Shown here in pieces: positions 10,488 through 11,756 of a stretch of DNA of 15,296 bases. The notes under the pieces were generated by a model. It had not been told where the DNA came from and searched no databases. It saw only the letters and a list, made by a program, of their open reading frames with translations. Each line of letters begins with the position of its first letter. The first letter of the stretch is position 1. Origin of the DNA: a virus (Duplodnaviria > Heunggongvirae > Uroviricota > Caudoviricetes); the IMG/VR virus record IMGVR_UViG_2879770953_000001; one strand, given 5' to 3'. The position numbers and the translations under genes were made by a program.

Positions 10488-11756
10488 ATGTCTGTAGTGA
10501 TATCAGGTGCGCTGACTGATGGCGCAGGTATCCCCATGTCCGGATACCATATTATTCTGAAATCCCGGGTAAACACCCCGGAAGTGGTGATGAACACTGT
10601 TGCTGATGTGATGACAGGAAACGATGGTGAATACTGTTTCCATGCGCGGACTGGAAAATATGGTGTGTATCTGAAACAGGACTGGCGCAACGAGTACAAC
10701 GTTGGCGACATTGCTGTATATGAGGACTCAAAGCCCGGCACGCTGAATGACTTTCTGATTGCTCCTGATGAGGGCGACCTGAAACCGGATGTCGTCAAAC
10801 GCTTTGAGGAAATGGTGGCGCAGGCGCAGCAGAGCGCCGGGGCCGCAGCCGGAAACGCACAGCAGACGGCGCAGGATGTGGCGGCAGCCGCAGGTTATGC
10901 CCGCGCAGCAGAGCAGGCCAAAAATGACATTGATGCTGCGCTGACCGGCACTCTGAAAACGGCTAACCATCTGTCTGAAATCGCAGCAGCAGGCGAAAAG
11001 GCACAACAGAAGTCCCGGGATAATCTGGGGCTGAAAAGTGCGGCCACGATGGAAGCACAGAGCGACATTTACGACCGGACAAAAGGCCGTCTGGCGATAC
11101 CCGGCGCATTCGGCTTTGGGTGTGCTTTTCTGCCTGAAGATGTTATCCGTTTTGACACTAAGAGTGATTTCCTGGCCTAGGTAAGGAATGCGCTGCCAGG
11201 TGAATATTCCGTTGCTGGCCCTTACGGCATCATCATACCCGACACACGGTTTGAAGGGGTGCTCAGCATCCGGTGGACTGATGCACGCCCTGAGACAACA
11301 GAACCGCGGTACAGAGCCAAATCCCTTACTTTTTACGGCATTAACGGCCCCATTTATCACACCCGCTACTGCTACTGGCCCATATCCAGACTGACTGACT
11401 GGGTGAAAATAAATATAACCACAGAAGATATTATTTACAGAATCGTGGCGAGCTCTGTCCGCAACAGATGGGGAGACCCTGACATTGGCGGGCTGATTAT
11501 TGCTGCGTACCAGGGAGAAGCTGACGGTGATAAAGTCATCAGACTTGTCAGGGGGCAGTCATACAGAGGCTCACGACTGGGACCGGTGGGGATTTCAGTG
11601 CCCAGTACTCCCACCGGAACGTATATAGTATCCCCACAATTTTTCATTACGGGATGTTCAGAGCATTCATTACCGGGGTCATATTGCGCCCTGTCCGGGG
11701 TGCCGGATGCACATGTCTCTGGCGCAATGCCCGGGCTTTTTATTCGCACATCGTGA
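10488..11756 (+). pseudogene. Lambda Stf-like side tail fiber gene with an in-frame amber codon
   Basis: The N-terminus (MSVVISGALTDGAGIPMSGYHIILKSRVNTPEVVMNTV...IAVYEDSKPGTLNDFL...) closely parallels the lambda Stf N-terminus, followed by an Ala/Gln-rich segment. TAG at 11178-11180 is in frame, and the frame stays open to 11756 (track ORFs 10488..11180 and 11259..11756 share a frame). Confidence 0.7.

Follow-up and report, generated by a model that had tools for sequence, protein, structure and literature searches.

The DNA analysed here, called the window below, is a stretch of 15,296 nucleotides that appears to hold a contractile-tail-type prophage remnant with an ipaH gene. It would correspond to the ipaHb locus of a Shigella/EIEC ipaH island, most likely in S. 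flexneri. The features are collected in Table 1. The head genes and most of the tail genes of the prophage are absent, which makes their loss by IS-mediated deletion likely. The phage genes are interrupted by four IS elements, and only Tfa, the exact protein of which is widespread in Shigella, and the IpaH effector are intact in the remnant.

Table 1. Features of the locus (positions in the window; strand given where recorded)
Feature	Position	Strand	Condition or evidence
Integrase	1-1101		truncated, 366 of 465 aa; exact protein recorded as S. flexneri
IS600-like element (IS3 family)	ORFs 1142-2298	-	insertion; adjoins the truncated integrase gene
Baseplate J gene, fragments of the remaining 3' part	2363-2514, 3283-3563, 6318-6602		split by IS1 and the IS66-family element
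IS1	about 2515-3282		insertion in the baseplate J gene
IS66-family element	about 3564-6317		insertion in the baseplate J gene
DUF2612 baseplate-associated gene	6604-7208		-1 frameshift; one nucleotide missing near 6692 compared with VL40
Main tail fibre gene	from 7195		split by IS2
IS2	8095-9425		interrupts the main tail fibre gene; same site in E. coli VL40
Tfa, tail fibre assembly protein (PF02413)	9919-10464	+	intact; directly upstream of the amber-bearing gene
Tail fibre pseudogene, 422 codons including one amber	10488-11756	+	translation and homologues
N-terminal attachment domain (PF08400, phage_tail_N), upstream of the stop	10488-10880	+	Pfam profile match
Premature amber codon TAG, apparently a G→A change at 11179 in a TGG codon (Trp231)	11178-11180	+	alignments
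Distal 191 codons, beyond the stop	11181-11753	+	phrog_2636 and C-termini of homologues
DUF4376 partner gene, 188 aa when intact	11767-12331	+	+1 frameshift in a T run
ipaH, T3SS effector, 608 aa	12511-14337	-	intact
pin-like serine invertase	14856-15296		stop after 146 codons, the last codon of the window

The lesions that surround the fibre gene of interest are of several kinds. The intervals of VL40 that match the baseplate J gene overlap by 8 bp at each IS junction, which looks like a target-site duplication. The transposase of the IS66-family element (4684-6285) is split by a single in-frame TGA (5404-5406) into ORFs 4684-5406 and 5416-6285, which share one frame; the window thus has another reading frame divided by one stop codon. 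The frameshifted DUF2612 gene now reads as two ORFs (6604-6801 and 6780-7208). Since the IS2 in the main tail fibre gene occupies the same site in VL40, its insertion predates the split of these lineages. Segments 7733-8094 and 9426-9637 of the main fibre gene give no alignment with VL40 at the megablast level; comparison of the sequences suggests that this gene may be a mosaic.

The DUF4376 partner gene carries a T9 run at 11828-11836 where its relatives have T8. As a result, the frame that begins with GTG at 11767 stops at a TGA (11836-11838), and the remaining ORF spans 11822-12331. In its 3' part (12076-12235), 27 of about 160 positions differ from both VL40 copies, as against about 1% in the rest of the region; this points to a patch that was probably acquired from another paralogue by recombination or gene conversion.

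On the far side of the DUF4376 gene lies ipaH. About 370 nt upstream of it is a perfect 16-nt palindrome (14697-14732, AATGTACTGTTTTTTT aaag AAAAAAACAGTACATT). It holds a 15 of 17 match to GTATCGTTTTTTTANAG, which we take to be the consensus of the MxiE box, with 0.01 chance matches expected. A putative MxiE box at this place would fit with ipaH being still regulated and a functional cargo gene. Between the ipaH upstream region and the ATG of the pin-like gene at 14856 there is also a run of 35 C residues (+ strand, 14782-14816), about 40 nt upstream of this ATG. Its length varies widely elsewhere: three EIEC genomes have 6 C, two other assemblies have 20 and 23 C, and a fourth EIEC genome has 7 C with the upstream flank altered by an adjoining IS110-family element. 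The run is a hypervariable homopolymer, and could be a contingency tract, a place prone to slippage or an artefact of sequencing. The orthologues of the pin-like gene in EIEC are annotated pinE and share its internal stop. When the surroundings of the fibre genes were searched for inverted repeats that might be invertase crossover sites, only short, probably chance pairs were returned, so the pin-like gene does not appear to flip this segment.

The gene of interest follows Tfa. When its frame is translated on the + strand from the ATG at 10488 to the TGA at 11754-11756, exactly one internal stop is met, the TAG at 11178-11180. The claim of the first-pass annotation that a single in-frame amber codon interrupts an otherwise open fibre frame is thus borne out. 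Its codon counts, 231 before the stop and about 192 after it, were each one too many: 230 sense codons precede the TAG (10488-11177) and 191 follow it. In the ORF list the frame appears as two entries, 10488-11180 and 11259-11756, the latter read from an internal GTG. The Pfam and PHROG matches, together with an intact CDS in VL40, show that the frame is a genuine gene rather than an ORF that is open by chance.

The PF08400 match covers about residues 1-131 (E=8.5e-71) with a score of 236.7 bits, above the gathering threshold of 26.6, and a Pfam search with the 191 residues beyond the stop gave no match. The tail-fibre family phrog_2636, on the other hand, recognizes both halves of the split protein. 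With the reconstructed protein the match has E=3.2e-204, and its best stretch pairs residues 133-421 with profile positions 272-567, running across the position of the stop; the part beyond the stop, when searched alone, still matches profile positions 371-567 (E=2e-74). Sequence matches in the PDB are limited to the N-terminal domain (9e7m, 'Tail fiber protein', residues 1-92, E=7e-16).

In the phage collection, the resemblance to lambda-type side tail fibres (46% identity) is limited to residues 1-110 of the query, and the similarity in shaft and C-terminus that membership of the lambda Stf family would entail is absent. The label 'Stf-like' previously given to this gene hence suits the N-terminal 110-131 residues or so, those of PF08400, and is inappropriate beyond residue 110, where no match to lambda Stf is seen. 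By comparison, protein L56 of the Stx2e phage phiP27 (NP_543108.1) aligns with the reconstructed fibre at 100% query coverage and 38.9% identity, colinearly and inclusive of the C-terminal domain. Actinobacillus phage pPE4 gp69 also matches the whole length of the fibre, and the distal part aligns with the C-termini of phiP27 L56, pPE4 gp69 and a protein of E. coli SC418. The gene as a whole is best described from these alignments as of the phiP27 L56 type with an N-terminal domain of the lambda Stf type.

The neighbourhood agrees with this assignment. The phiP27 module reads L54 (fibre), L55 (Tfa), L56 (the 490-aa fibre), L57 and attR, and the gene order is the same in pPE4 and in SC418. The window follows that order, with a fibre gene and Tfa before the amber-bearing fibre gene and a small DUF4376-type gene after it, next to the prophage end.

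To which sense codon the TAG corresponds is evident from close relatives, as the first-pass annotation had proposed to check by alignment. The intact 422-codon CDS of E. coli VL40 (WP_490182047.1) differs from the window by 8 nt and has TGG, a tryptophan codon, at the site. The true orthologous locus in this strain, ipaHb, has pinE and yfhH as its neighbours and is 98.2% identical to window positions 6318-15296; it has TGG at the site, and so does the paralogous ipaHa locus. The fibre gene is intact at both VL40 loci and in RMDEC465. TGG is also found in eight close contigs and in the best-matching copy from each of 10 EIEC-type genomes, and Trp occupies this position in five members of the same 90% protein cluster, which come from S. 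sonnei, S. flexneri and E. coli O124. The fibre copies of S. flexneri SFBU1023 and of strain ECMA0423 have G at 11179, as do the contigs that share the T9 frameshift of the window wherever they cover the site. The sense codon is accordingly present in near-identical orthologues and paralogues alike, as is typical of a nonsense pseudogene.

An 81-nt query centred on the stop was matched exactly by none of 5,426 complete E. coli genomes. Among the ten best places for this query, nine had one mismatch and the tenth was 95.1% identical. A 36-mer containing the TAG had no exact match in species-representative genomes either, a set with one genome per species that has little bearing on frequency. 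Because the relatives have TGG, the change is best read as a G→A transition at 11179 that would have turned Trp231 into an amber codon.

The TAG allele is not confined to the window. Six NCBI draft contigs have a record of the identical 230-aa product. In three of them, which are independent assemblies (L005, L007 and L008), the TAG is present with flanks that are 100% identical; in L007 the identical stretch extends over 1,413 nt and reaches downstream through the T9 run. The other three (L003, L004 and L006) have the same N-terminal part and end at 11178, one base before the SNP. These ends suggest forks in the de Bruijn graph of the assembly between a TAG copy and its TGG paralogues.

These data bear on two readings that would make the amber codon something other than a mutation within a gene. 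We regard it as very unlikely that the TAG arose in sequencing or assembly, for instance by cross-talk among near-identical paralogues, and conceals a true TGG. It must be noted that genomes of this type hold 2-7 copies of the segment, so that collapse of paralogues could in principle misplace an allele, and the break of three draft contigs at 11178 has the look of an assembler fork. However, for the assembly to fork at the SNP, both alleles have to be truly present in those genomes, and finding the same allele within identical flanks, over as much as 1,413 nt, in three other independent assemblies argues against a private sequencing error. The first-pass annotation had also raised the alternative that the TAG marks the junction of two formerly separate, adjacent genes, and had named homologues ending at the same position as its hallmark. 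The modularity of fibres, in which a conserved N-terminal module is joined to a variable remainder, provides a weak hint in this direction. Yet phiP27 L56 (490 aa), pPE4 gp69 (667 aa) and the SC418 protein (654 aa) are single CDSs running through the stop site, with Trp231 invariant in a four-way protein alignment with the fibre studied here. Moreover, one PHROG profile spans the site, the close relatives have a sense codon there, and the module boundary in E. coli lies near 10865 (about residue 125), not at residue 231. Among the homologues examined none terminates at the amber position and all run through it, and this is therefore one gene, not two; the junction has next to no probability left and was rejected.

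The remaining questions are whether the stop serves a function and what has driven its appearance. We hold it to be very probable that a single fibre gene of a phiP27-like prophage had its Trp231 codon converted to amber by one G→A substitution at 11179, as a step of neutral decay. Translation would then end after residue 230. The truncated product would still have the attachment domain at its N-terminus and the Ala/Gln-rich shaft, but would lack the distal 191 residues which, to judge from the general architecture of tail fibres, would be the receptor-binding end; presumably it could not function as a fibre. In any case the prophage is no longer able to build a virion, and the mutation would be selectively neutral: with no assembled tail and a broken partner gene, no phenotype is expected from the amber codon. 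The ipaH cargo is apparently the only gene that is maintained. The Shigella/EIEC lineage is known for IS expansion and gene decay.

One could argue instead that the stop is functional, being read through or suppressed to yield the full-length fibre, or that the 230-aa fragment is itself the selected product, since the attachment domain and shaft upstream of the stop are intact. This is hardly credible. Programmed readthrough would call for a conserved stop and a maintained downstream frame, a combination that the relatives do not display; the stop is seen only in the three 100%-identical contigs besides the window. A tRNA scan of the window found none, hence no suppressor, and an Rfam scan of the window found no element, hence no known recoding RNA. 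Furthermore, the DUF4376 gene has a frameshift and the genes for the baseplate and the main fibre are destroyed, so that there would be no virion in which either product could be employed.

It is also very improbable that the knock-outs of this gene reflect selection against fibre expression in Shigella/EIEC, beyond the neutral decay that we favour. The idea stems from repeated, independent lesions of the same gene elsewhere. A 4-nt GACT deletion at 11389-11392, within a GACT tandem repeat, is found in three copies of SFBU1023 and in their ECMA0423 counterparts; a G5 run is one G short at 11551 in four Logan contigs; two assemblies have an in-frame deletion of 13 codons (39 nt) in the Ala-rich shaft, which leaves 409 aa; and an IS2 lies within the orthologous gene of EIEC strains VL7S7 and O121 201805972. 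The carriers of fibre-gene lesions in our set are L024, L026 and L029 (S. flexneri SFBU1023), L015-L019, L012-L013 and L034-L035. Non-synonymous and synonymous differences among the close copies stand at 7:6, too few sites to serve as evidence of relaxed selection.

As to the age of the amber codon, it had been described as a recent single hit and not long-term decay. For the fibre gene itself this holds, in view of the TGG found in its relatives. It does not hold for the surroundings, which are marked by IS insertions, frameshifts and truncations. The T9 frameshift is found in more contigs than the amber codon and is thus the older lesion. Taken together, the comparisons indicate that the amber codon is probably a young, lineage-specific lesion nested within the T9 strains, in an island that has long been decaying.

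The practical consequences are modest. The fibre gene ought to be annotated as one pseudogene and not as two ORFs, and the W231amber allele and the adjacent T9 frameshift might together be used to mark the lineage. The contrast between the intact ipaH and the broken fibre gene shows which part of the island selection still maintains. The locus shows cleanly how a point mutation, here a very recent one, makes a pseudogene in a defective prophage, a matter of little consequence in itself. It is an ordinary and already understood event, a nonsense pseudogene in a defective ipaH-island prophage, and there is nothing new in it.

The closest known counterpart of the fibre is phiP27 L56, with which it is colinear over all 422 residues and near-identical over the N-terminal 115 or so. 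The two differ in that L56 is intact, has 490 aa and a longer shaft, whereas the copy in the window is split by the amber codon and resides in a defective prophage that carries ipaH. Lambda Stf shares the PF08400 N-terminus, and there is a parallel in the lesion as well: the stf gene of the laboratory strain lambda PaPa is reportedly split by a frameshift into orf-401 and orf-314, a finding attributed to Hendrix and Duda in 1992. In both instances a point lesion divides the gene into two ORFs, but here it is a nonsense substitution in place of a frameshift, and lambda is a siphovirus, unlike the baseplate-bearing, phiP27-like phage from which the window would derive.

For the locus as a whole, the literature on ipaH islands in relation to phiP27-type phages provided general context only. 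The ipaH islands of Shigella are characterised prophage-derived islands (named in PMC4226921). The window resembles them in having ipaH at the close of a tail-fibre module and in the abundance of its IS elements and pseudogenes, and it shows synteny to the EIEC ipaHb locus beside pinE and yfhH. From these islands it differs in no respect of kind; W231amber is a lineage-specific lesion carried by the window and three draft assemblies.
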